DNA of 64,000 nucleotides from the sequence record PZ347775.1. One strand, written 5' to 3'. The notes below the pieces were generated by a model. The model was not told the DNA's origin, did no database searches, and worked only from the letters and a program-made list of their open reading frames with translations. Shown here one piece after another: positions 9,646-25,741 of this stretch. The translations under genes and the position numbers were made by a program. The stretch's first letter is position 1. Every line of letters starts with the position of its first letter. The stretch is from a phage.

Positions 9646-10065
9646 TTATTCCTTAAAGTGTGCTTTCAACATCTGATACAAGGACCATGCCTGTTCATTA
9701 TTTTCAATAGTAACTTTCATGACTGGGAATTCTGTGAAATCTTCTATTTGTTCTTGCTCTTCCTGCTCTTGTTCTTCAGATGCCTGGTATGGATTTTCCA
9801 CTTCATCAAAGAACCCAGCTTCGTTAGTAGAAAGCCAGATAAAGTTTTCGTCAAGGATATCACCATGTGTTGCATATCCAACTGTGCCAGTAGATGTCAC
9901 AATTTTAGTAGGACGCCCGTAATAGTCCACATCTAAAATTTTAAAAGGTTCCATACCTAAACGTCGTGCATAGATTCCGTTATCAGTATGGTCTTTAATA
10001 AAATTTTCTTGAGCTTGTTTATTTTTAAATTGATACCATTTATTAACTTCAAATCTAATAGCCAT
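9646..10065 (-). CDS. hypothetical protein with acidic EQ-repeat segment
   Basis: 139-aa ORF; internal [14 protein letters not shown] tract. Confidence 0.5.
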
Positions 10066-15504: not shown

Positions 15505-16107
15505 TTATAGATTAAATCCTTCAAAATCAAGAGTATAGATAGTGTATGTTGAATACTTTTTATACTCGTATCTATCCGCAATTCTAAATACACTTCCAGC
15601 TGGTATCATTACTTCCTGTTCATCTGAAACTAATTCCATATTACGATAACGATGGCTATCCGGAAATTTAAAACTCGGACTATATTCTTTACAACGTAGA
15701 GCTTTTATAGCATACTCCTGAAAATTAAATACCATAGGAGCTTTGAATTCAAAAATAACTTGTGTGTTGTATTCTAATCCAGAAGCAAAATGCAGAGCTA
15801 TATTTTTATCATATGAAGCTGATACTACTTTATCGAATGTAATAATATCAATTCCTTGATTTAACACCTGTTTAGTCTCAACTGGAACACCTCTCCAAAG
15901 AGGTTTATCGTTTGGAACCAAACGAGATTTGATTATTTCATTTAACCAAGAATGATCGTCTGGCTTATTAGTAATACAATGAATTAAAAGTTCAATTTCA
16001 GATAAATTAAATCCTTCAGAAAGTAATTCTTCACGAATAGAAGCACGCACCGATGCATCCATTGATTTTATTTTAAAATCTTTTAATTGCATTGCTGAAT
16101 ATTTCAT
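15505..16107 (-). CDS. modA: ModA ADP-ribosyltransferase
   Basis: 200-aa ORF; R-S-E motifs LWRG / SASYD / DEQEVMIP; T4 ModA length. Confidence 0.9.
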   Translation of the reverse strand: MKYSAMQLKDFKIKSMDASVRASIREELLSEGFNLSEIELLIHCITNKPDDHSWLNEIIKSRLVPNDKPLWRGVPVETKQVLNQGIDIITFDKVVSASYDKNIALHFASGLEYNTQVIFEFKAPMVFNFQEYAIKALRCKEYSPSFKFPDSHRYRNMELVSDEQEVMIPAGSVFRIADRYEYKKYSTYTIYTLDFEGFNL

Positions 16108-16727
16108 TCAACTACCTCAATATCATACACTTTAAATGTTCCAAACGAATCATGTAATTTTTCTTTTGAAATAGAAGTTATTTTATACTTTCCAATTGGA
16201 ATCATCCATTCTTGTTCACGTACAATCATCATTAAGTTATCAGTACGTTCTGAATCTAATCCATCAGTATCTTCATATGTATACTTAAACTCAGTATTAG
16301 GAGAAGAAAGTATAATATCGCTGATATGGTCAGAGTAATTAAAAGCTTTATCAGTTTTTAAGCGAAGTACTATTTCAGTGAAATATTCAGCATAGGAAAA
16401 AGAACACGCTGTATGCAAACTAGTAGTAAATGAATCTACTCTGTTCGTTGAAAACACTTCTCCAACTTGTAAATCTTTAATGAGTTCTTTTGTCGATTTT
16501 GATATACCACGATATAACTGATAAGGTGATTCAGTTAAATGCTTTTTAATGATTTTATTCAACTGCCGATGAAGAGCTTCATTCTTTTTGGCTTCCATAC
16601 ATTGCCAAAGAATTGACTGTTCAAAGTCAGTAAATTTTTCACAGACCTTTTTATACATATCATATTGAAAATCGACACTTTCAGCTTTTATAGATAACTG
16701 TTCAACATCTGCGAGATTAATAATCAT
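16104..16727 (-). CDS. modB: ModB ADP-ribosyltransferase
   Basis: 207 aa from second ATG after GGAGG SD; motifs LYRG / SFTTS / REQEWMIP. Confidence 0.88.
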   Translation of the reverse strand: MIINLADVEQLSIKAESVDFQYDMYKKVCEKFTDFEQSILWQCMEAKKNEALHRQLNKIIKKHLTESPYQLYRGISKSTKELIKDLQVGEVFSTNRVDSFTTSLHTACSFSYAEYFTEIVLRLKTDKAFNYSDHISDIILSSPNTEFKYTYEDTDGLDSERTDNLMMIVREQEWMIPIGKYKITSISKEKLHDSFGTFKVYDIEVVE

Positions 16728-16753
16728 GATAGCCTCCATATACTTCAGAAGCT

Positions 16754-16783
16754 ATCATATCATTGTTAGGAAGGAAAGTAAAC
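16754..16783 (-). promoter_or_regulatory. T4-type early promoter upstream of modB
   Basis: -35 GTTTAC (16778-16783), 18-nt spacer, -10 TATGAT (16754-16759). Confidence 0.45.
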
Positions 16784-16794
16784 AACTTTTTGAA

Positions 16795-16977
16795 TTATTT
16801 TGCCCAGGGAGCCCAGGGCGGAGGGTCAAGATGGTATGAAGCTAGTTCTTCTAGAAGAGCATCTGGGGCTTCAATTCCATAATTCTGTAATACTATACGG
16901 TACTCTTTCTTATAATCACTAGAATCATTCTGGATATTCGTAGAATGATTATCTTCTAACATCTCAAATAAATCCAT
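16795..16977 (-). CDS. hypothetical protein (modA.2 position)
   Basis: 60-aa ORF. Confidence 0.5.
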   Translation of the reverse strand: MDLFEMLEDNHSTNIQNDSSDYKKEYRIVLQNYGIEAPDALLEELASYHLDPPPWAPWAK

Positions 16978-16985
16978 ATTAATTC

Positions 16986-17456
16986 CTAGCGATAAAAACC
17001 AAAATAACGATTAGTTTCAATAATCTTTCTTTCTTCTTCGGACATTCTCCAGCGTAGTCCAACATCAAAATGAGCCCAGACCATCTTAACAAATGCATTT
17101 ATATCTTTAATATCTTCAATAATGAATGTTTTACTTTTAGAAGGTTGACTCGCTAATTTAACTTTATCGTCTTCAAACAGGTCAAAAAGACCATATTCAT
17201 GAGCTCTTTTATAGCCTTTAATAGTTAAAGCTTCAGAAGAAGAAAATGGTGAATCAGTATTCTGCAAAATATCTTCAGTATGCTTTATAATTAGAATAAC
17301 ATTTTCTGGATATTTTCTTTCTTTTATATCTTTAATTAAAAGATCCGGATTTTCTGCTAAAGGAATAATTAATGAGCACTTTTTATCAAGTGTATTTACT
17401 GATTTACCTTCTTTGGACATAAATTCTATTGAATAATGTTTTGCTACTTCAATCAT
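16986..17456 (-). CDS. hypothetical protein (156 aa)
   Basis: ORF with ATG; synteny. Confidence 0.55.
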
Positions 17457-17601
17457 GTGATTTCCTCTTGCCTACTAATGGGCCGTCAGGAATTTTGTTT
17501 TCCTGGATATATTTCTCATTTTCTTCCATCATTTTACTGCCAATTTTAAGAAGCAAATCCAATGCTTCATTTGCTTTAGCCTTGGCCTCTTCTAGCGTCA
17601 T
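17449..17601 (-). CDS. 50-aa ORF
   Basis: ATG at 17599-17601; stop overlaps start of downstream gene (ATGATTGA); weak SD. Confidence 0.3.
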
Positions 17602-17609
17602 ATCTCTGT

Positions 17610-17813
17610 TCACGATTTATCCCCATAGATGTCTCTCATCAATTTAAGCGCTGAGCGTTCTAATTTCTTTTCTTTCTCAACGCTAATCATTGATTTCATC
17701 CATTCTTCTGATTCGTTCTGCATTTCTTTATTTGCTTGTTCAACCCAACCATCATCAATGTACATTGAGTTTGGTCTATTGAACCATTCAAACATTTTCT
17801 TCAGAACTTTCAT
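17610..17813 (-). CDS. hypothetical protein (67 aa)
   Basis: ORF; synteny. Confidence 0.5.
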
Positions 17814-18285
17814 TTGTTTTACCTAAAACAACAGTAGGAGCATCATCAAATTCATGAATTTTTAGCAAATTTGGATGTAAACTATTCCACACAGAAGAAA
17901 TAAAGTATGATAAAGCATCTTCGTCCACAATTATAAATTTATTTCCTTTATCTATTTTCCAACTATATACTGAATCGTACGAATAAAAAGATAAAGGTTC
18001 ATCATTATATTTTTCTGTGTTAACATTAATGTATTCTGATTTAGTAAATGCTTCAATTGCTCTAAACGGAATATTTGGTACAGTTTCAATAATACCAATC
18101 TTTTTAAGTTTTATTTCAGCATCTTCTGGAACTGGCATTGAAACAAAATTTTCTACGAGATACATTGGGTCACAATAACCCTTATCAATCATTACTGCTA
18201 CTGTAATTGGAATATCTTTAGCAAACGCCATGCTATCACTGCTAATATACATTTCAAACAAAATCGCTTCCATAATTTTCCTCAA
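17788..18285 (-). CDS. hypothetical protein (165 aa)
   Basis: ORF; synteny. Confidence 0.55.
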
Positions 18286-18623
18286 TCACAAGATGTAGAT
18301 GAACAACTAGAATCACAAGAACTTCCACACGAATCGCCCGTCCATACATGAACAGGAACATTAGTGTCATATGAATCAGAACTAGACTGCGTATTCTGCG
18401 TATTAGATGATGTAGTAGGTGTTGACCAGCGCCAAGGATTTTTATAATATTCTTGGGCTTCTTCATAAGTCATAGTAACTGCTTCTACTGTTCCATCTCC
18501 CATATAAACATATTCAACTACAGTTAAAGGAAGGTAGTCATTTGAAATAGGAACTACACCTTCCCCAGGAGTCGTAGAGAAAAAATCCGTAAAGAAGCTT
18601 TTAAACCAATTAAAGATAAACAT
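18282..18623 (-). CDS. hypothetical protein with Cys/Ser-rich C-terminal tail
   Basis: 113-aa ORF ending [18 protein letters not shown]. Confidence 0.5.
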
Positions 18624-18829
18624 TACAAAAAGCCTCTCTTGAATTCGACTTGCTTCTCGCCATAATCATATCGAATCTCTGCATTAAATTCGACAGAACC
18701 ATCTGCGTACATCATAAATGAATGCACAACAACTTCTGTAGACCATGGCTGTAGTTCATATTTCTTCATTACATGCCGTGAAATGATAATATCTAAATCT
18801 TCATTTGGTTTAATCCAGCGATTTAACAT
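18623..18829 (-). CDS. hypothetical protein (68 aa)
   Basis: ORF with GAGGAG SD and early promoter upstream. Confidence 0.5.
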   Translation of the reverse strand: MLNRWIKPNEDLDIIISRHVMKKYELQPWSTEVVVHSFMMYADGSVEFNAEIRYDYGEKQVEFKRGFL

Positions 18830-18855
18830 AGTGCTCTCCTCTATAAGATAATTTT

Positions 18856-18885
18856 ATTATACCATACTCATTTTGGAAAGTAAAC
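18856..18885 (-). promoter_or_regulatory. T4-type early promoter
   Basis: -35 GTTTAC (18880-18885), 18-nt spacer, -10 TATAAT (18856-18861). Confidence 0.5.
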
Positions 18886-18900
18886 CGGTAAAATGAAAAA

Positions 18901-18920
18901 AGGACTCCCGGAGGAGTCCT
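18901..18920 (-). terminator. intrinsic terminator downstream of soc
   Basis: aggactcc-cgga-ggagtcct hairpin followed on minus strand by U-run. Confidence 0.55.
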
Positions 18921-18925
18921 TGAAA

Positions 18926-19171
18926 TTATTCACCAGTTACTTTCCACAAATCTTCGTTTGCAGTAATCCATTCAGTACGTTGATTTTCTTCATATACTGT
19001 AGAATATGCTGCTTTTTCTGAAGGGAATGTCTGGTAATGAGAGCCAGAAATTTTGTGAACGTCAGAATAAAGAGGGAAAGCTACAGAAATTTCCTTTCCT
19101 TCAATTTTCTTATTTCCATCTAATTTTTGCTCAAATGTTTTGATATTAACATAACCGCGAGTACTAGCCAT
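18926..19171 (-). CDS. soc: Soc small outer capsid protein
   Basis: 81-aa ORF MASTRGYVNIKTFEQKLDGNKKIEGKEISVAF matching T4 Soc; late promoter TATAAATA upstream. Confidence 0.92.
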   Translation of the reverse strand: MASTRGYVNIKTFEQKLDGNKKIEGKEISVAFPLYSDVHKISGSHYQTFPSEKAAYSTVYEENQRTEWITANEDLWKVTGE

Positions 19172-19187
19172 GTAATTCTCCTTTTAT

Positions 19188-19397
19188 TTAAATTACATGA
19201 CTATTTATAATAAATTCTTGCGGAACGCTAAAATATCCAATTTTAGTTAATATAACAACATCACCGTTAATAACTACCGGAGAATAATCGGCTGGAGCAT
19301 TAAACTTCCAATGAGCTCTAATATTATATCCATCAGAACCAAATGCTCGACTAGCCGGTCTCCCGGCTTTTTGCCATGCATAAAAATCAAATTTCAT
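19188..19397 (-). CDS. hypothetical protein (69 aa)
   Basis: ORF between soc and gene 56. Confidence 0.5.
   Translation of the reverse strand: MKFDFYAWQKAGRPASRAFGSDGYNIRAHWKFNAPADYSPVVINGDVVILTKIGYFSVPQEFIINSHVI
19202..19209 (-). promoter_or_regulatory. T4 late promoter TATAAATA for soc
   Basis: Plus-strand tatttata at 19202-19209, about 30 nt upstream of soc ATG. Confidence 0.55.
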
Positions 19398-19594
19398 TTT
19401 GAATGCTCTATAATTAATTTTAAGGCTTCTTCATGCACCTTACCTAATTGTATATGTCCAGTTTTAATTGTGTAAGCTTTGTGGAGCTGATTAGATAAGA
19501 GCTCACATACGAGCTCCTTGTCATAATTTTTAAATAGCTGGTCAATACGTTTCTTGTGGGCTTTCTTAAGCTGGCGTTTATTTAAACGAGCCAT
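19394..19594 (-). CDS. hypothetical protein (66 aa, basic)
   Basis: ORF between soc and gene 56. Confidence 0.5.
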   Translation of the reverse strand: MARLNKRQLKKAHKKRIDQLFKNYDKELVCELLSNQLHKAYTIKTGHIQLGKVHEEALKLIIEHSK

Positions 19595-20112
19595 TAATAA
19601 CCTCGGTCTTGACGAGCGAAGTTTTCAGCATTTTTCAGATAATAAAGTTTAAAGATTTCTTCAGCCGTAAGACCAAGACCTTGGAACATGTTCAGAACGA
19701 AATGAAGAATATCAATCATTTCGAATTTAATTTCCAACTGGTCTTGTGGAGACAAATCAGTAATTAGAGTTTCACGGCGTTCACCATGTTGAGCTTTCCA
19801 AGGCTTCCATACAGCAGATGCATCTTTTTCGCCATTGCTCATACCGCCAAGAGATGTCAGAAGTTCACGGAATTCATCGTCAATATAATCTTTCTGATTA
19901 CGTAGCCAATCAACAACTTCACCAGCAGTAGCCAAATCATCAGGATGACGATTATATTCAGGTTTATCTTTAGCTAAACGAACTTGCAGAGATTTCTGCA
20001 TATCAAGCATAACCTGCAGCGGGTCTTTTTCATCACAGAGAATATCCCAGTATTCATTTTGAGCTTTATCAGCGCCTTCGATCAGATGACTACATTCGTT
20101 GAAATGTGGCAT
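19594..20112 (-). CDS. 56: gp56 dCTPase/dUTPase (MazG-like dCTP pyrophosphatase)
   Basis: 172-aa ORF; T4 gp56 length; synteny. Confidence 0.88.
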   Translation of the reverse strand: MPHFNECSHLIEGADKAQNEYWDILCDEKDPLQVMLDMQKSLQVRLAKDKPEYNRHPDDLATAGEVVDWLRNQKDYIDDEFRELLTSLGGMSNGEKDASAVWKPWKAQHGERRETLITDLSPQDQLEIKFEMIDILHFVLNMFQGLGLTAEEIFKLYYLKNAENFARQDRGY

Positions 20113-20113
20113 G

Positions 20114-20764
20114 TTATTTTTCCTTTCTTATGAAGTTTTCTATCATATGTCTATAGCAGATATTAGGATAACCTGCCTTGACAGCTATTTTATTAAATTT
20201 TGTGCGCTTAGGTCTATTATTATAAACCCATAATTCATAAAGCGCATCATAACTATTCCATATTTCTCCTCGCCTAGGATTTGGTAAACCGTATCGAGGC
20301 GAATTTTTACCGCTAAATCTTCCTTTTCGGGCTTTACTCATATTAGCCTTGGCTTCATCGGATATAATTTTACCTTTATGAGCTAGACGCATTTTGGCTT
20401 TAGTTTCTTCTGGGGTCTTTTTGCCTTTAATCCATGACGGCTTGCCATATCTAGGATTATTTTCACCCGAGAAAAGAACAGAGTTTTGGATTTTAAGAGT
20501 TTCTATTAATCTACTTGTTAATTTAACACCTTTATTATATCGCATTAAATTTACAGCATAATGCAATCCTCTCACATCTGGATATATTTTAGTTAATAAT
20601 CTATGAGCTATAAAATGCTCACGCGCAGTTAACTCAACAAGATTGTTTTTGTCATCTGCTCCTCCTATACATCTAGGAATTATATGATGGCGTTCTTTAT
20701 ATCCGCCAAGATGCCGGCATTTAGCTTTTGTAATTAAAGCCGAGTAAATTTTTTGGTAATTCAC
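20114..20764 (-). CDS. free-standing HNH homing endonuclease with NUMOD-like DNA-binding repeats
   Basis: N-terminal His-Me finger ERHHIIPRCIGGADDKNNLVELTAREHFIAH; repeated basic K-G-K modules; GTG or nearby start with AAGGA SD. Confidence 0.8.
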   Translation of the reverse strand: MNYQKIYSALITKAKCRHLGGYKERHHIIPRCIGGADDKNNLVELTAREHFIAHRLLTKIYPDVRGLHYAVNLMRYNKGVKLTSRLIETLKIQNSVLFSGENNPRYGKPSWIKGKKTPEETKAKMRLAHKGKIISDEAKANMSKARKGRFSGKNSPRYGLPNPRRGEIWNSYDALYELWVYNNRPKRTKFNKIAVKAGYPNICYRHMIENFIRKEK

Positions 20765-20834
20765 ATATATCCTTTCAATTCATTGGTTAGTAGATTAATT
20801 ATACAATAAATATATAAAGCAATAAGGAGGATAT

Positions 20835-21035
20835 ATGGTACAAAAATTAATGGCACTTGTTAATGCCATCAAAGGTAATAAAAAACGTATAGCTTTTACT
20901 ATTTCTGCTATGATAGGAATTTTACTTTGGAATTTTGTTTTATCGCCAGTTGCTATTGCTCATGGCGTTAGTATTCCAGTAATTACTCTTGATACATTCG
21001 TAGATTTAGCATTTGCTTTAGTTGGGTTAATTTAA
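20835..21035 (+). CDS. 66-aa small membrane protein on the opposite strand
   Basis: Strong SD AAGGAGG 4 nt before ATG at 20835; predicted TM helix IAFTISAMIGILLWNFVLSPVAIA; only convincing plus-strand gene in window. Confidence 0.55.
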   Translation: MVQKLMALVNAIKGNKKRIAFTISAMIGILLWNFVLSPVAIAHGVSIPVITLDTFVDLAFALVGLI

Positions 21036-22060
21036 ATCTTAGCATATTTAGATAGCCGCATTTTAGCCATCAACCCTTGGGCAATATTATTTTTCATATA
21101 TTCCATAATTTGTTCAGGGGTTGCACCTTCCTTTCTAATCATATCATTAACATCTTTTGATTTCCAGGGAGATTTGTCCCAAAACATAACCCTTTCTCCT
21201 GCATCAACTAATTTAGTCATTCGTTTAATAGTGTCAGGATGACGAGGTTCATTATCTAAAACCCATACACGTCTATCTTTAAATGGAACAATTTCTAGGT
21301 CTAATTGACCACCCGTAATAGCTATACCATTTTCAATAAAAAGCGAATCTATAGGTCCTTCTAGAACATATACATCACCATCTTTAACCCGTTCAACACC
21401 ATAGATTTTTGTTGCCTCAGGATAAGCTTTGATGGTGATATATTTTTGGGGAGCATCTTTCTTTAATGCACGCCCTTGAAAAGACTCAGCTTTTCCATTA
21501 GCATTATAAATTGGAATAACAAGACGAGGCTCAGGTATTTCCTTTTTGTATGTTCCTGGTGCTATACTATTAACTAATTTAGGCCATTCGGTTGTAAACC
21601 AAAGATATTTCCATTTGTCCTTTGGAATACAACGAGCTTTTACGTATTTTATAATTGGATGGTCTTCCGCCAGTTTATCTAATCTAACACATGACGGAAG
21701 AGATTTAATTATTTTCTTCTCAGGTTGTTTAGGAAGTTCTTTAGGTTTTTCTACTGGACGACTTTTACCTTTTTCTTTTCTTATTTCAAAGATATACTCA
21801 CGATATAAATCGGGTTCAAACTCCTTTAAATATATTCCGATTGGTGCATGATAGTTGCAGTTATAACAATGAATATTTCCTTCATTATTATCGCCATAAT
21901 ACCATCCACGGGCTTTATTTTGGTCGGTTTTTGAATCTCCACAAACAGGGCATCTAAACCGCAATTTAAAAGTTGAACTATTATTTACTTGTGTGAATTT
22001 AGGTAAATGAGCTAATGCACGATATGCAAACTCATTATCAATCCAAGGTATTGATGACAT
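21032..22060 (-). CDS. 61: gp61 DNA primase
   Basis: 342-aa ORF; N-terminal zinc ribbon CPVCGDS...CYNC and Toprim core; T4 gp61 length. Confidence 0.93.
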   Translation of the reverse strand: MSSIPWIDNEFAYRALAHLPKFTQVNNSSTFKLRFRCPVCGDSKTDQNKARGWYYGDNNEGNIHCYNCNYHAPIGIYLKEFEPDLYREYIFEIRKEKGKSRPVEKPKELPKQPEKKIIKSLPSCVRLDKLAEDHPIIKYVKARCIPKDKWKYLWFTTEWPKLVNSIAPGTYKKEIPEPRLVIPIYNANGKAESFQGRALKKDAPQKYITIKAYPEATKIYGVERVKDGDVYVLEGPIDSLFIENGIAITGGQLDLEIVPFKDRRVWVLDNEPRHPDTIKRMTKLVDAGERVMFWDKSPWKSKDVNDMIRKEGATPEQIMEYMKNNIAQGLMAKMRLSKYAKI

Positions 22061-22062
22061 TT

Positions 22063-22227
22063 TTACTCTTCTTTTTCTTTAGATTCCTCTTTTTTCTTTT
22101 TAGGAATCTGTTCAGGACCTTTATTTACTACAGCGCCTGATGTTGTTCCAGTGGAGATATTTTCAGGATTACCACCTGAATCTCCAGCTACCATATCTTC
22201 TTTGATAAATTCTTTATATGTTTTCAT
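22063..22227 (-). CDS. hypothetical protein (54 aa, 61.1 position)
   Basis: ORF below track cutoff: MKTYKEFIKEDMVAGDSGGNPENISTGTTSGAVVNKGPEQIPKKKKEESKEKEE. Confidence 0.5.
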   Translation of the reverse strand: MKTYKEFIKEDMVAGDSGGNPENISTGTTSGAVVNKGPEQIPKKKKEESKEKEE

Positions 22228-22228
22228 A

Positions 22229-22855
22229 TTAACCTCTATTCATAAAAGCATTAAAAATTTGGTCATCAATAGAAACATTCACTTTAGACTGTTTTTCTGA
22301 TGGTAATTCATATCCACATATTACAATTTTGTGATCAATATCAAAATACACAGAAGCAATATGATTAATGATGTTTTCAGTAAAGTCTAAATCAACATCA
22401 ATATCTTTTTGACCACAGCCCAAAGGATAAATAATGCGAGTAATTCGATTATCTTTAACAAAGATTCCACCGACATACTCTGTGCTGCGTTTAAAGTCTA
22501 CACGCCGACGAAATGAAAAATATTCAGGCTCTTTATGAGCTCGGCTCATAGGACACAACGAGTAACTAGAATAAGAAATGTCAAATCCTACGCCTTCAAT
22601 ATGAGCCAAATTATCATGATTAAACCAATTATAATCGTACGCCAAGTCCATTAGATTATAATATGTAAAAGGCACCGGATTAACGTCATTAGTCACAAGC
22701 ATGTAATTAGCAACTGCTATAATTTCATTGTTTTTAACGAATACAAACCGTGATTGATGCGAATGACCTGGACCCGCGTTTTCACGATTAATGATATAAC
22801 ACTGGGCACCTTTATATTTGTATGTATCTTTGCACTTGTGCATTTGGTAAAGCAT
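22229..22855 (-). CDS. hypothetical protein (208 aa), 61.2 position (AdfA-like anti-DarT candidate by synteny)
   Basis: Size and position match T4 61.2; function inferred only from literature on homologous locus. Confidence 0.55.
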   Translation of the reverse strand: MLYQMHKCKDTYKYKGAQCYIINRENAGPGHSHQSRFVFVKNNEIIAVANYMLVTNDVNPVPFTYYNLMDLAYDYNWFNHDNLAHIEGVGFDISYSSYSLCPMSRAHKEPEYFSFRRRVDFKRSTEYVGGIFVKDNRITRIIYPLGCGQKDIDVDLDFTENIINHIASVYFDIDHKIVICGYELPSEKQSKVNVSIDDQIFNAFMNRG

Positions 22856-23148
22856 TATTCACCTACCACTTCAGCGACGATATTTTTATTATTAAAGTTT
22901 TTATCGCAATATAGAACATAATTATACTGCATTACACCACCAGACTTAAGCTGTTTTTGCACTTCAGCTTTCATTTCAGGACGATCACGCTCAACGATAT
23001 TCATAATATCTGCTTCAATTTGAGTTTCAACTTCAGTCTGATCTGCAGTCATAGACCACTCACACAAATCTTTATCATATCCTGCCATAGCAGGCTGAGC
23101 AGCGCAAGAAGATAAAGCAAAAATTGCAGCAAAGATAAATTTTTTCAT
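22855..23148 (-). CDS. sp: Spackle-like periplasmic protein (superinfection exclusion / lysozyme inhibitor)
   Basis: 97-aa ORF with signal peptide MKKFIFAAIFALSSCAAQPAMA; position of T4 sp. Confidence 0.7.
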   Translation of the reverse strand: MKKFIFAAIFALSSCAAQPAMAGYDKDLCEWSMTADQTEVETQIEADIMNIVERDRPEMKAEVQKQLKSGGVMQYNYVLYCDKNFNNKNIVAEVVGE

Positions 23149-23251
23149 GATAATCTCCTCAGTAGTTTATGTTTATAGTATCTCAATTTTCAACAAAAGT
23201 AAACACTAGTAGAAGCAAACAGACAAATTACAATAATTGGTGATTTCAGTT

Positions 23252-23431
23252 TCATTCTTCTCCTCCATGTTGATGAACATATTCTTTTTCAAGTCTAGAG
23301 CACAAGTTTTCATATTCAACTAATAAAAATGAATCAAGTGCGTTATTTCTATGCTGACACCGTTCTTGTAAAGAATCCATCTCTGAACGTTGTTCTTGTG
23401 TTAATAATTGATAACCTGATACTTTAGACAT
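23252..23431 (-). CDS. hypothetical protein (59 aa)
   Basis: ATG after GGAGAACAAA cassette and perfect early promoter. Confidence 0.5.
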   Translation of the reverse strand: MSKVSGYQLLTQEQRSEMDSLQERCQHRNNALDSFLLVEYENLCSRLEKEYVHQHGGEE

Positions 23432-23467
23432 TTTGTTCTCCATTTACTCGTTTGTTTTGATAGGTCT

Positions 23468-23496
23468 ATAATAACATGTTTAAAACAAAAGTAAAC
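23468..23496 (-). promoter_or_regulatory. T4-type early promoter
   Basis: -35 GTTTAC (23491-23496), 17-nt spacer, -10 TATTAT (23468-23473). Confidence 0.5.
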
Positions 23497-23750
23497 TATT
23501 TTATTTCCTCAAGTTCGTTAATCAATAAAAGTTCTCTGACGCTAAAAATAAAGAAAAATGTGTTCCCATCAACCAGAGCATGACCGCTAATAGAACACCC
23601 TCTGCGGAATTTAGAAACTTCACAATCTAGAACTGTAAAGGGTTTTAATCCTATGACTTTAGCTGTGCGTCTATTCAGTTCACAACCACTCGCGAATTTT
23701 TCCAAATCTTCTTCTGATTTAAACTGATATTCTCTATTAACTAGCATCAT
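23496..23750 (-). CDS. hypothetical protein (84 aa)
   Basis: ORF with early promoter upstream. Confidence 0.5.
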   Translation of the reverse strand: MMLVNREYQFKSEEDLEKFASGCELNRRTAKVIGLKPFTVLDCEVSKFRRGCSISGHALVDGNTFFFIFSVRELLLINELEEIK

Positions 23751-23781
23751 TTTCTTTTCTCCGCGATTAGCTGATAGAATT

Positions 23782-23811
23782 ACTATAACACAACTCTATC
23801 AGCTTGTAAAC
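23782..23811 (-). promoter_or_regulatory. T4-type early promoter
   Basis: -35 GTTTAC (23806-23811), 18 nt, -10 TATAGT (23782-23787); inverted repeat agctgatag/ctatcagct flanks -10. Confidence 0.5.
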
Positions 23812-23813
23812 TA

Positions 23814-24113
23814 CTATTTTAAAACTTCTGTATAATCACATGTTACAAACTGTTTCTCTAACTTGACGATTTTACGAAAGTATCTTTTGCATTGGCGAAT
23901 CTGCCGCTTTGTAGGGCGCACAGCAAACTTAATAAATTCCACTCGACCAAATGGAGGGCTTTCTTCTGCTGGAATATCTAATACCAATTCCCACGTATCT
24001 GCGATAAGTGCTTTGAATTGAGTATTTTTCCTGACGTTATACGGAGTAGGTTTAAATAAAACAATATGCATATTATCCTCGGCAATCCACTTCACATACT
24101 TTCTTGTCATCAA
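23814..24113 (-). CDS. hypothetical protein (99 aa)
   Basis: ORF between 61 and 41. Confidence 0.5.
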   Translation of the reverse strand: MMTRKYVKWIAEDNMHIVLFKPTPYNVRKNTQFKALIADTWELVLDIPAEESPPFGRVEFIKFAVRPTKRQIRQCKRYFRKIVKLEKQFVTCDYTEVLK

Positions 24114-24255
24114 TGAAAGCTTTAACTAATGCTTTATTAACTTCAGCATATTGAGTAGTAGCCCATTGAACGTCATCTTTCATCATTGTGATTTCTTTAG
24201 TAAACATGCTTTCATTCTTAAACCACCCCATAAAAACTACTTTTACCAATTCCAT
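24073..24255 (-). CDS. hypothetical protein (60 aa)
   Basis: ORF with early promoter upstream. Confidence 0.45.
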   Translation of the reverse strand: MELVKVVFMGWFKNESMFTKEITMMKDDVQWATTQYAEVNKALVKAFIDDKKVCEVDCRG

Positions 24256-24284
24256 AAAAATCTCCTCATTTAACCAACAAGACT

Positions 24285-24314
24285 ACTATACCATAGTCTT
24301 GTCGGCTTGTAAAC
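24285..24314 (-). promoter_or_regulatory. T4-type early promoter
   Basis: -35 GTTTAC (24309-24314), 18 nt, -10 TATAGT (24285-24290); inverted repeat around -10. Confidence 0.45.
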
Positions 24315-25741
24315 TAAAATTTTAATTCATTTGCCAAAGCATCTAACTGAGCTCGAGCGGATTCGTTTCTTTGATAGCGATTCTGTTCAGCCTGAATCTG
24401 CTGTGAACCTGCTACTTCGTTCACTTCAGTTGGAGTAGAATCTTGTTCAATTTCTACCCATTTCTGATTTCCTTTTTGAACACCCATCAAAAACTTATTC
24501 CATTTATTCTTATCACCGTATCGTGATTTGATTTGCTTAATGAGTTGTTGTTCAGCAGCTGCTAACTCCTCGGTTTCAATGACCGCAAGCATAAAATCGG
24601 CTGTTGCTGGAAGACCGGCAGATTCTGCAATATCGCTCATGTTAACATCAGAAGAATCCCAAGCTTGTTTACCAACCTGTGCTGCAGTCCAAAGAACAGT
24701 TTCGGTTTCAACAGCCAGAGCACGCAATTCCTCTGCGATAGCTTTAACAGTTGTGTAACTATTTTCTGAATAAACTCTAATGCGGCAAGATTTACAAATA
24801 CCTAGATAGTCGACAATAATGATTGTTGGAACAAAATTCTTCTTGAGCTTCAATTCGTTTAAAAGCGATCGAAATGTATTAGCGTCTGCTCCACCAGTAG
24901 GATATTGCTTAACGATTAAACGACCGAGAGTAGATTTCTCACGCCATTTTTCCATCTTTCCTTTATACTCAGCGTAAGAAATATGCCCATCATCAATGTC
25001 ATCAAGAGAAACATCAAGCATATTAGCATCAATACGTTTAGCACAGACTTCTTCAGCCATTTCCATGGAAATGTAAAGAACATTATGTCCGAGCTGCAAA
25101 TAATCTGCTGCCAATGAACACAGACCTAATGACTTACCAACGTTAACACCAGCCATTAAAACGTTCAGTGTTCCAGTTTCAGCTCCGCCTTTAGTAATTT
25201 TATTTAGAATTTTGAGTTTAAATGGAACCTTACGAGCTTTATTCATATAAGATAGCCAACGTGCTTCGTAGTCATCCATCCAATCATGACCAACGTAACT
25301 ATCAAATGAAATTGATAATGCTTGGCGCATGATGTCAGGAATAGCACCTACATCCGGCATTTTCTTATTGCGTTTTTCCGGAGGAAGCTCAGCATTGGTT
25401 TGAATTTCAATTATTTTAGATGTGGCGTTAAACATCGCCCTTTGCTGAACATATTTTTCTGTTTCTTTTACTAACCAGCTGTGGTCTTCCGGAGAATCGG
25501 CCAGTTTTGAAATAAGTGTTTTTATACCAGAATATTCTGTTTCAGTAAATGAACTATTTTCTAACGCAACATTTAACGCATTAATAGATGGAACGCTATG
25601 ATACTCGTTAACATGAGATTTAATTAATTTGAATGTATTTTTAGCTGGACCACTTTCAAAATATTCTGAATCCATATATGGCCAAACTTTTGAAAAATAA
25701 GCTTGATCAAATATGAGATGAGAAAGAATAATTTCTACCAC
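24314..25741 (-). CDS. 41: gp41 replicative DNA helicase (DnaB-like)
   Basis: 475-aa ORF; Walker A GVNVGKS; T4 gp41 length and sequence. Confidence 0.95.
   Translation of the reverse strand: MVEIILSHLIFDQAYFSKVWPYMDSEYFESGPAKNTFKLIKSHVNEYHSVPSINALNVALENSSFTETEYSGIKTLISKLADSPEDHSWLVKETEKYVQQRAMFNATSKIIEIQTNAELPPEKRNKKMPDVGAIPDIMRQALSISFDSYVGHDWMDDYEARWLSYMNKARKVPFKLKILNKITKGGAETGTLNVLMAGVNVGKSLGLCSLAADYLQLGHNVLYISMEMAEEVCAKRIDANMLDVSLDDIDDGHISYAEYKGKMEKWREKSTLGRLIVKQYPTGGADANTFRSLLNELKLKKNFVPTIIIVDYLGICKSCRIRVYSENSYTTVKAIAEELRALAVETETVLWTAAQVGKQAWDSSDVNMSDIAESAGLPATADFMLAVIETEELAAAEQQLIKQIKSRYGDKNKWNKFLMGVQKGNQKWVEIEQDSTPTEVNEVAGSQQIQAEQNRYQRNESARAQLDALANELKF

Follow-up and report, generated by a model that had tools for sequence, protein, structure and literature searches.

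Gene content of the 41–61 interval

We analysed a 64,000-nucleotide stretch of phage DNA (sequence record PZ347775.1, hereafter the window) and concentrated on the 2.3-kb interval between the genes for primase gp61 (21032–22060) and helicase gp41 (24314–25741). The window belongs to a Tequatrovirus, and the interval, which is matched in 524 phage records, is 99.3% identical to that of Escherichia virus KFS-EC3. It holds seven genes, all on the minus strand, in the transcription order dmd, tifA/61.4, ORF84, ORF59, sp, adfA/61.2 and 61.1 (Table 1), compared with five genes between 41 and 61 in T4. The five orthologues of T4 genes retain position, order and strand at protein identities of 96–100%, and the occurrence of dmd, tifA and adfA orthologues on one strand at the 41–61 position identifies the interval as a version of the T4 "anti-TA (toxin-antitoxin) island": this name was given to the region by Srikant et al. 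(2022, eLife; PMC9391042), who explicitly flagged the neighbouring genes as antitoxin candidates. The island has already been published; what is new here are two small promoter-carrying cassettes, encoding the open reading frames (ORFs) ORF84 and ORF59, which can reasonably be regarded as untested anti-defence candidates.

An earlier note on this DNA had described a cluster of small ORFs between primase and helicase that included a spackle-like periplasmic protein and, at the 61.2 position, a 208-residue counterpart of the RB69 anti-DarT factor, and had stated that T4 has fewer genes here; all of this is borne out by the present gene assignments. The same note had listed four further small ORFs of 59, 84, 99 and 60 residues as additions. 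This count was too high because Dmd and TifA had been taken as ORFs without a known identity: the 60-residue ORF is Dmd and the 99-residue ORF is TifA with a spurious TTG extension, which leaves ORF84 and ORF59 as the only additions compared with T4. Gene 61.1, although within the region that the note covered, had not been mentioned there.

Table 1. Genes, promoter elements and insert in the 41–61 interval (positions in the window)
Feature	Coordinates	Strand	Length	Evidence or remarks
dmd (61.5)	24073–24255	-	60 aa	T4 identity, Pfam, phrog_2102
tifA (61.4)	23814–24071	-	85 aa	T4 identity, Pfam, Shine-Dalgarno
ORF84	23496–23750	-	84 aa	extra relative to T4
ORF59	23252–23431	-	59 aa	extra relative to T4
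sp (spackle, 61.3)	22855–23148	-	97 aa	T4 identity, Pfam
adfA (61.2)	22229–22855	-	208 aa	T4 identity, Pfam, RB69 alignment
61.1	22063–22227	-	54 aa	final island gene ahead of primase 61
Two-cassette insert versus T4	23205–23811	-	607 bp	-35 box to -35 box
dmd-tifA promoter and stem-loop	24256–24314	-		-35 GTTTAC 24314–24309; -10 TATAGT 24290–24285
ORF84 PeSL-type element	23751–23813	-		-35 GTTTAC 23811–23806; -10 TATAGT 23787–23782
ORF59 promoter and leader	23432–23496	-		-35 GTTTAC 23496–23491; -10 TATTAT 23473–23468, then GGAG
sp promoter	23149–23204	-		-35 GTTTAC 23204–23199; -10 TACTAT 23180–23175

Orthologues of T4 genes

Dmd is 100% identical to T4 Dmd and matches Pfam PF17587 (E = 1.6e-46) as well as phrog_2102. 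Dmd is known to inhibit the endoribonuclease toxin RnlA (as summarised in PMC9391042), and from this identity the protein of the present phage would be expected to inhibit RnlA/LsoA directly. TifA is a basic protein (pI 9.8) with 97.6% identity to T4 gp61.4 and a match to Pfam DUF7279 (PF23945; E = 2e-20). Its ATG lies at 24071, one base past the dmd stop codon, with a GAGGA Shine-Dalgarno sequence just upstream; PHROG matches, Pfam matches and the T4 alignment all start only at residue 15 or later of the 99-residue ORF, and the TTG extension of the latter overlaps dmd and is covered by neither PHROG nor Pfam. The placement of the tifA start one base after the dmd stop indicates that the two genes are co-transcribed, as is the case for dmd-61.4 of T4, which is transcribed from one early promoter (PMC9391042). 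T4 gene 61.4 (tifA) blocks ToxN (Srikant et al. 2022, PMC9391042), with TifA binding RNA and ToxN becoming trapped in a ribonucleoprotein complex (Guegler et al. 2023, PMC10853763).

In the downstream half of the island, Sp is 95.9% identical to T4 Sp and matches the spackle profile (PF25676, T4_Spackle; E = 2.2e-45) over a protein of the expected kind: its 97 residues begin with a signal peptide (MKKFIFAAIFALSSCAAQPAMA). Orthology and the literature together show Sp to be a periplasmic superinfection-exclusion protein, an assignment that is transferred here through sequence. AdfA, 97.6% identical to T4 gp61.2, is covered over residues 1–208 by PF23813 (E = 1.7e-136). Alignment with RB69 AdfA, which the earlier note had recommended as a check, placed His165 of AdfA opposite R164 of the RB69 protein. 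Neutralisation of DarT1 has been linked to a His at position 164 of RB69 AdfA (PMC11257639); 61.2 (adfA) counters DarT (PMC9391042, PMC11257639), and deletion of adfA from T4 gave no phenotype (PMC11257639). The last gene product of the island, gp61.1, is 96.3% identical to its T4 counterpart and belongs to phrog_1823. Some GenBank product names within the island are spurious: in P8, for example, tifA is annotated as "DNA polymerase" and 61.1 as "major capsid domain-containing protein".

A two-cassette insert between tifA and sp

Comparison with T4 by blastn revealed a 600-bp gap in homology (23206–23805) with 7 nt of shared homology at the junction. The insert, whose left junction is the -35 box of the ORF84 promoter and whose right junction is the corresponding box ahead of sp, is made up of an ORF84 cassette of ~315 bp and an ORF59 cassette of 292 bp; the ORF59 cassette is flanked by the 13-nt direct repeat GTTTACTTTTGTT, one copy of which occupies 23192–23204. 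In an alignment of five phages (the window, P8, REP4, ime09 and T4), the sp promoter directly follows the tifA stop codon in T4, the P8 type carries ORF84 only, and the window, REP4 and ime09 carry both genes. When the insert alone was used as query, both cassettes were found in 17 records (e.g. KFS-EC3, ime09) and ORF84 without ORF59 in dozens (e.g. P8, RB3-10, Shfl2), whilst ORF59 without ORF84 occurs in at least three records (IsaacDaniel, SA20RB, Ec_MI-02). All four combinations of presence and absence are therefore represented, which indicates that the cassettes move independently of each other. Judged from the aligned sequences, this presence pattern is the signature of the published PeSL-type shuffling, and the junctions at GTTTAC -35 boxes show that the cassettes were gained by homologous exchange within conserved early-promoter sequence.

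Early promoters of the island

The pattern GTTTAC-N17/18-TANNNT was counted over the 64-kb window and compared with chance expectation: 23 matches were found against 1.68 expected (14-fold), with 22 of the 23 on the coding strand, which argues that these are genuine T4-type early promoters. Four matches fall in the interval, before dmd, ORF84, ORF59 and sp, with none before tifA. The claim of separate GTTTAC promoters for three of the four small ORFs is hence correct for dmd, ORF84 and ORF59 (-35 boxes starting at 24314, 23811 and 23496), whereas the description of such promoters as perfect has to be withdrawn: the four -10 hexamers read TATAGT, TATAGT, TATTAT and TACTAT, none of them being TATAAT.

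In the element upstream of dmd, an inverted repeat (24274–24305) surrounds the -10 hexamer and the RNA fold has an energy of -24.3 kcal/mol (z -6.9). The ORF84 element carries a stem-loop with 13-nt arms (23769–23804), again surrounding the -10 hexamer (-18 kcal/mol, z -3.2), and the tifA stop codon lies inside its AT-rich stretch. An Rfam scan of 21900–24450 at E values up to 1 returned no RNA families, and a scan for consensus terminators found none.

The promoter and leader of ORF59 recur in other phages: they are 87% identical over 85 nt to an element upstream of motA in Mosigvirus APCEc01 and 82% identical to an element upstream of nrdC.10 in Dhakavirus JS98, whilst T4's own motA promoter differs from the ORF59 element in having another spacer. 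The likeness to the APCEc01 motA region (23410–23515 of the window) extends into the first codons, ATG TCT AAA GT. Capture of the ORF59 N-terminus (MSKV) from motA was considered as a reason for this and dropped, as other members of the ORF59 family also exhibit SK(V/L)(S/T)GY.

ORF84 is related to the N-terminal domain of GoF

ORF84 matches phrog_2980 ("goF mRNA metabolism modulator") and phrog_13003, and over its whole length it can be aligned, at 30% identity, with the N-terminal domain of the goF product encoded in the window (9646–10065) (tblastn, E = 1.4e-5). GoF, together with MotB.1 and Frd.2, makes up an LSm-like (SH3-like) family of Tevenvirinae that was defined by Kim et al. (2025, PMC12152347). 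Structure prediction for ORF84 with AlphaFold2, run on a shallow alignment, produced a single confident model (pLDDT 78.4, pTM 0.65), against scores of 41–52 for the remaining four. In this model five strands, with a two-helix insert, form the bent antiparallel sheet of an SH3/LSm-like barrel. Among viral models this structure matched T4 MotB.1 (Foldseek, E = 4e-4), and it shares with GoF the PDB neighbours FeoA and IdeR reported by Kim et al. (2025, PMC12152347). By its sequence matches and predicted fold, ORF84 is a free-standing paralogue of the SH3/LSm-like beta-barrel that forms the N-terminal domain of GoF: unlike GoF, it comprises the domain alone, without linker or C-terminal domain, and it is located in the 41–61 island, not at the goF locus.

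Homologues of ORF84 show 57–80% identity; one of 57–59% is encoded directly after gp41 in Gaprivervirus SP18. The ORF84 subfamily, including this SP18 homologue of 57% identity, keeps C23, C43, C52 and H57, of which GoF has only the His, with a His at the position of the first Cys. A single zinc site formed by these four residues is unlikely given the predicted strand register, and matches of ORF84 to WT1 zinc-finger profiles from the PDB (E ~0.01) were dismissed as an effect of Cys/His composition. A different C-terminus, as implied by tblastn matches that cover residues 1–72 in most phages, was likewise discarded following DNA alignment: in many phages a point change introduces an earlier stop codon, leaving ORF84 4 residues shorter (80 instead of 84).

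ORF59 belongs to a small family shared with other mobile elements

For ORF59, the start that gives 59 residues is preferred over an upstream in-frame ATG (23443; 63 residues, less likely) because the second ATG is preceded by GGAG at a distance of 6 nt, phrog_37915 covers residues 5–63 of the 63-residue form, and most family members have few residues ahead of the conserved GY motif. All phage records with ORF59 are Tequatrovirus and all have it at the 41–61 locus. The earlier note had taken a lack of conservation in related phages as grounds for giving up its proposal; ORF84 was found in 84 phage records and ORF59 in 21. Beyond these phages, an exhaustive HMMER search yielded 10 cluster representatives of the ORF59 family and a profile search 39 clusters at 43–65% identity. 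With 15 invariant columns among 11 aligned members at this level of identity, ORF59 is to be regarded as a real, constrained protein. It is acidic (net charge ~ -5) and predicted to fold as a two-helix hairpin (AlphaFold2, pLDDT 84).

The relatives of ORF59 are encoded on a Vibrio fluvialis plasmid, on a Rheinheimera contig next to trbI, on viral metagenome contigs, on contigs that carry genes for an integrase, N6 methyltransferase, MazEF, TacAT, replicase or ArdC-N polyvalent protein, and in a V. fluvialis region that contains DUF4942, LPD29, DUF932 and ParB-like genes. Mostly they lie within same-strand runs of small orphan ORFs, and ten neighbours of the Rheinheimera homologue, searched against NCBIfam and PHROG, were all orphans.

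In V. fluvialis JAHUCD010000010 (139.5–159.7 kb) the ORF59 homologue P0041 is part of a one-strand array of small orphan ORFs flanked by DUF4942, LPD29, DUF932 and ParB-HTH genes. The ORFs are separated by ~150-nt repeats, each with a GC hairpin, the palindrome TAGTGCGCACTA and a promoter-like TTGCGC...TATAAT motif. By analogy with phage PeSLs, the array looks like a system of cassettes with a repeated terminator-operator-promoter unit. An integron was considered instead and set aside, since by their appearance the repeats resemble such units rather than attC sites.

Plasticity of the island and neighbouring loci

Comparison across related phages indicates that the 41–61 slot is a hot spot and highly plastic in Tevenvirinae. 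The island holds 5–8 genes in related phages, with 8 in ECO07P2, and the RB69 island (15505–21152) has 11, including imm.1 and imm in the slot between tifA and sp. Variation also affects adfA: ECO07P2 and Ozark encode an additional 118-residue ORF beside it, ime09 has this 118-residue ORF in its place, and in IsaacDaniel adfA is missing altogether. The C-terminal half of AdfA is matched by phrog_4122, a profile of 118 positions.

Two further features were noted beyond gene 61. Between gene 56 (dCTPase) and 61 lies a gene for a free-standing HNH homing endonuclease (20114–20764, minus strand, 216 residues; phrog_655, E = 1e-59), as part of a 642-bp insert (20128–20769) that KFS-EC3, the nearest relative, lacks. 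In T4 this position is occupied by dam, of which no homologue was found anywhere in the 64-kb window. The only plus-strand gene nearby is a 66-residue hydrophobic ORF (20835–21035) overlapping the 3' end of gene 61, which is annotated as a hypothetical protein, at the same place and of equal size, in REP4, KFS-EC3 and ime09 (noted in the last as RB69ORF029w); ORF029w of RB69 lies at the matching position.

Possible functions of the cassette proteins

The interval very probably represents the form that the known T4 counter-defence island takes in this Tequatrovirus, extended by two promoter-exchange cassettes of candidate anti-defence role. By orthology and the published work, one early promoter transcribes dmd and tifA, with Dmd expected to block an RnlA-type RNase toxin and TifA to bind RNA and trap the RNase ToxN; a second early promoter lies ahead of sp, adfA and 61.1, of which Sp would exclude superinfecting phage in the periplasm and AdfA would bind DarT1. 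Between tifA and sp, two self-contained cassettes, each with promoter, Shine-Dalgarno sequence and small ORF, have been acquired. The ORF84 barrel may act on RNA or on a protein that processes or degrades RNA, and the acidic ORF59 hairpin, with its conserved acidic residues, may bind and occlude a basic nucleic-acid-binding surface of its target. The earlier note had proposed the small early proteins of this interval as inhibitors of host defence or TA systems. For Dmd, TifA and AdfA such a role has been published, while ORF84 and ORF59 are connected with it by association only.

For each of the two cassette proteins, we tentatively propose a role as an early accessory factor directed against a component of the host, with a nuclease of a defence system or a toxin nuclease as the most plausible target, which it would neutralise: this seems possible, though less likely than not, from the position within the island, the early promoters and, in case of ORF59, a family that is shared with mobile elements. 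An RNA- or RNase-related role of ORF84 would be in keeping with Dmd and TifA, both of which are directed against RNase toxins. A more specific version, in which ORF59 is the founding phage member of a rare family of acidic hairpin inhibitors of ~55 residues, common to early-gene cassettes of T4-like phages and to establishment regions of plasmids and integrative elements in Vibrio and Rheinheimera, and directed against a nuclease defence or toxin, and ORF84 is the first counter-defence protein of the GoF family, appears rather unlikely.

Several observations weigh against this overall reading of the interval. Wild-type GoF has no demonstrated activity, with only the D25Y variant stabilising RNA (gene 41 reporter mRNA; PMC12152347), and ORF84 is mildly acidic (pI 5.8) instead of basic, which weakens an RNA- or RNase-related role; it also gave nothing significant in Pfam and no sequence match in the PDB. 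ORF59 had no match in Pfam, among PDB sequences or among PDB folds (Foldseek). Its family was detected in one of 72,556 PLSDB plasmids, predicted to be non-mobilizable, and a pattern scan of species-representative genomes returned no relatives; given this rarity, a general "leading-region" role is not established. Downstream of the ORF59 homologues, there is no conserved partner gene. The elements in front of ORF59 and sp exhibit no significant stem-loop (z -0.7 and +0.9), and with imm and imm.1, genes of superinfection immunity, occupying the same slot in RB69, position in the island does not imply an anti-toxin function.

The relationship with GoF also lends itself to an explanation within the phage itself: ORF84, and possibly ORF59, could modulate phage gene expression through mRNA stability or through termination dependent on Rho/RNA polymerase, and so tune early and middle transcripts, for example the message of the neighbouring gene 41. 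We regard this as possible, if doubtful. ORF84 is paralogous to GoF's N-terminal domain and falls into the PHROG goF family, the D25Y form of GoF makes gene 41 mRNA more stable, and mutants of goF act as suppressors of rho alleles, but neither wild-type GoF nor MotB.1 had more than little effect, if any, in the reporter assay (PMC12152347). Moreover, ORF84 lacks the C-terminal half of GoF and is dispensable, being missing from T4 and most relatives, and its place inside a counter-defence island favours an accessory role.

A function in superinfection exclusion or at the envelope, by contrast, would have both proteins resemble Sp and RB69 Imm/Imm.1, yet no signal peptide or hydrophobic stretch is evident in ORF84 or ORF59, predictions make both of them soluble (a beta-barrel and a helical hairpin) and no similarity to Imm, Imm.1 or Sp was found; in spite of the RB69 arrangement, in which imm.1 and imm separate tifA (61.4) from sp, and of the location of sp immediately downstream of ORF59, this makes such a function very improbable. 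Finally, the cassettes could be neutral passengers of promoter-mediated recombination, that is, hitch-hiking ORFans or decaying genes, as might be suspected from their patchy presence (84 and 21 of ~500 related records), their independent gain and loss and the loss of 4 residues from ORF84 in many phages. This is improbable: both cassettes retain intact ORFs, Shine-Dalgarno sequences and promoters, the ORF59 family keeps its 15 invariant columns at 43–65% identity across phages and plasmids, and the ORF84 subfamily has the same length and the same Cys/His positions even in another genus, where identity is 57%.

The current understanding of the island is unchanged by this analysis. Given that it ranks among the best-studied clusters of phage counter-defence genes, its value lies in narrowing the present candidates to two defined cassettes, ORF84 being tied to the GoF fold family and ORF59 to one that other mobile elements share, which constitute well-defined test articles as T4 has neither. 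If true, a counter-defence role of ORF84, whose assignment draws on a predicted model, would give the orphan GoF family a function.

Comparison with known systems

Compared with the T4 "anti-TA island", the dmd-tifA operon is under the same early promoter, and two more promoter-bearing genes lie between tifA and sp. The relatives of ORF59 bring to mind a second system, the islands of anti-defence genes found in leading regions of plasmids (Samuel et al. 2024, PMC11541004): they, too, occur in runs of small ORFs on mobile elements, and their neighbours include orphan methyltransferases, toxin-antitoxin pairs, ArdC-N, DUF932 and ParB-like genes. This likeness is suggestive and is one of gene context.

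The closest parallel for the cassettes themselves is with PeSL elements, for which the consensus TTTACW-N17-TAYWAT has been derived from the PST/T4 pair (Arbiol et al. 2010, PMC2839356; Comeau et al. 2014, PMC4122927). Mini-circles are part of the published PeSL concept, and the elements described here are known from their sequence alone. A stem-loop overlapping the -10 hexamer, as in PeSL cassettes, is significant in two of the four elements only. As in PeSL cassettes, an early promoter directly follows the upstream stop codon in an AT-rich context at all four elements, small variable ORFans are flanked by these elements, the junctions of insertion or deletion fall within the element, and the same element is found at unrelated loci of other phages.

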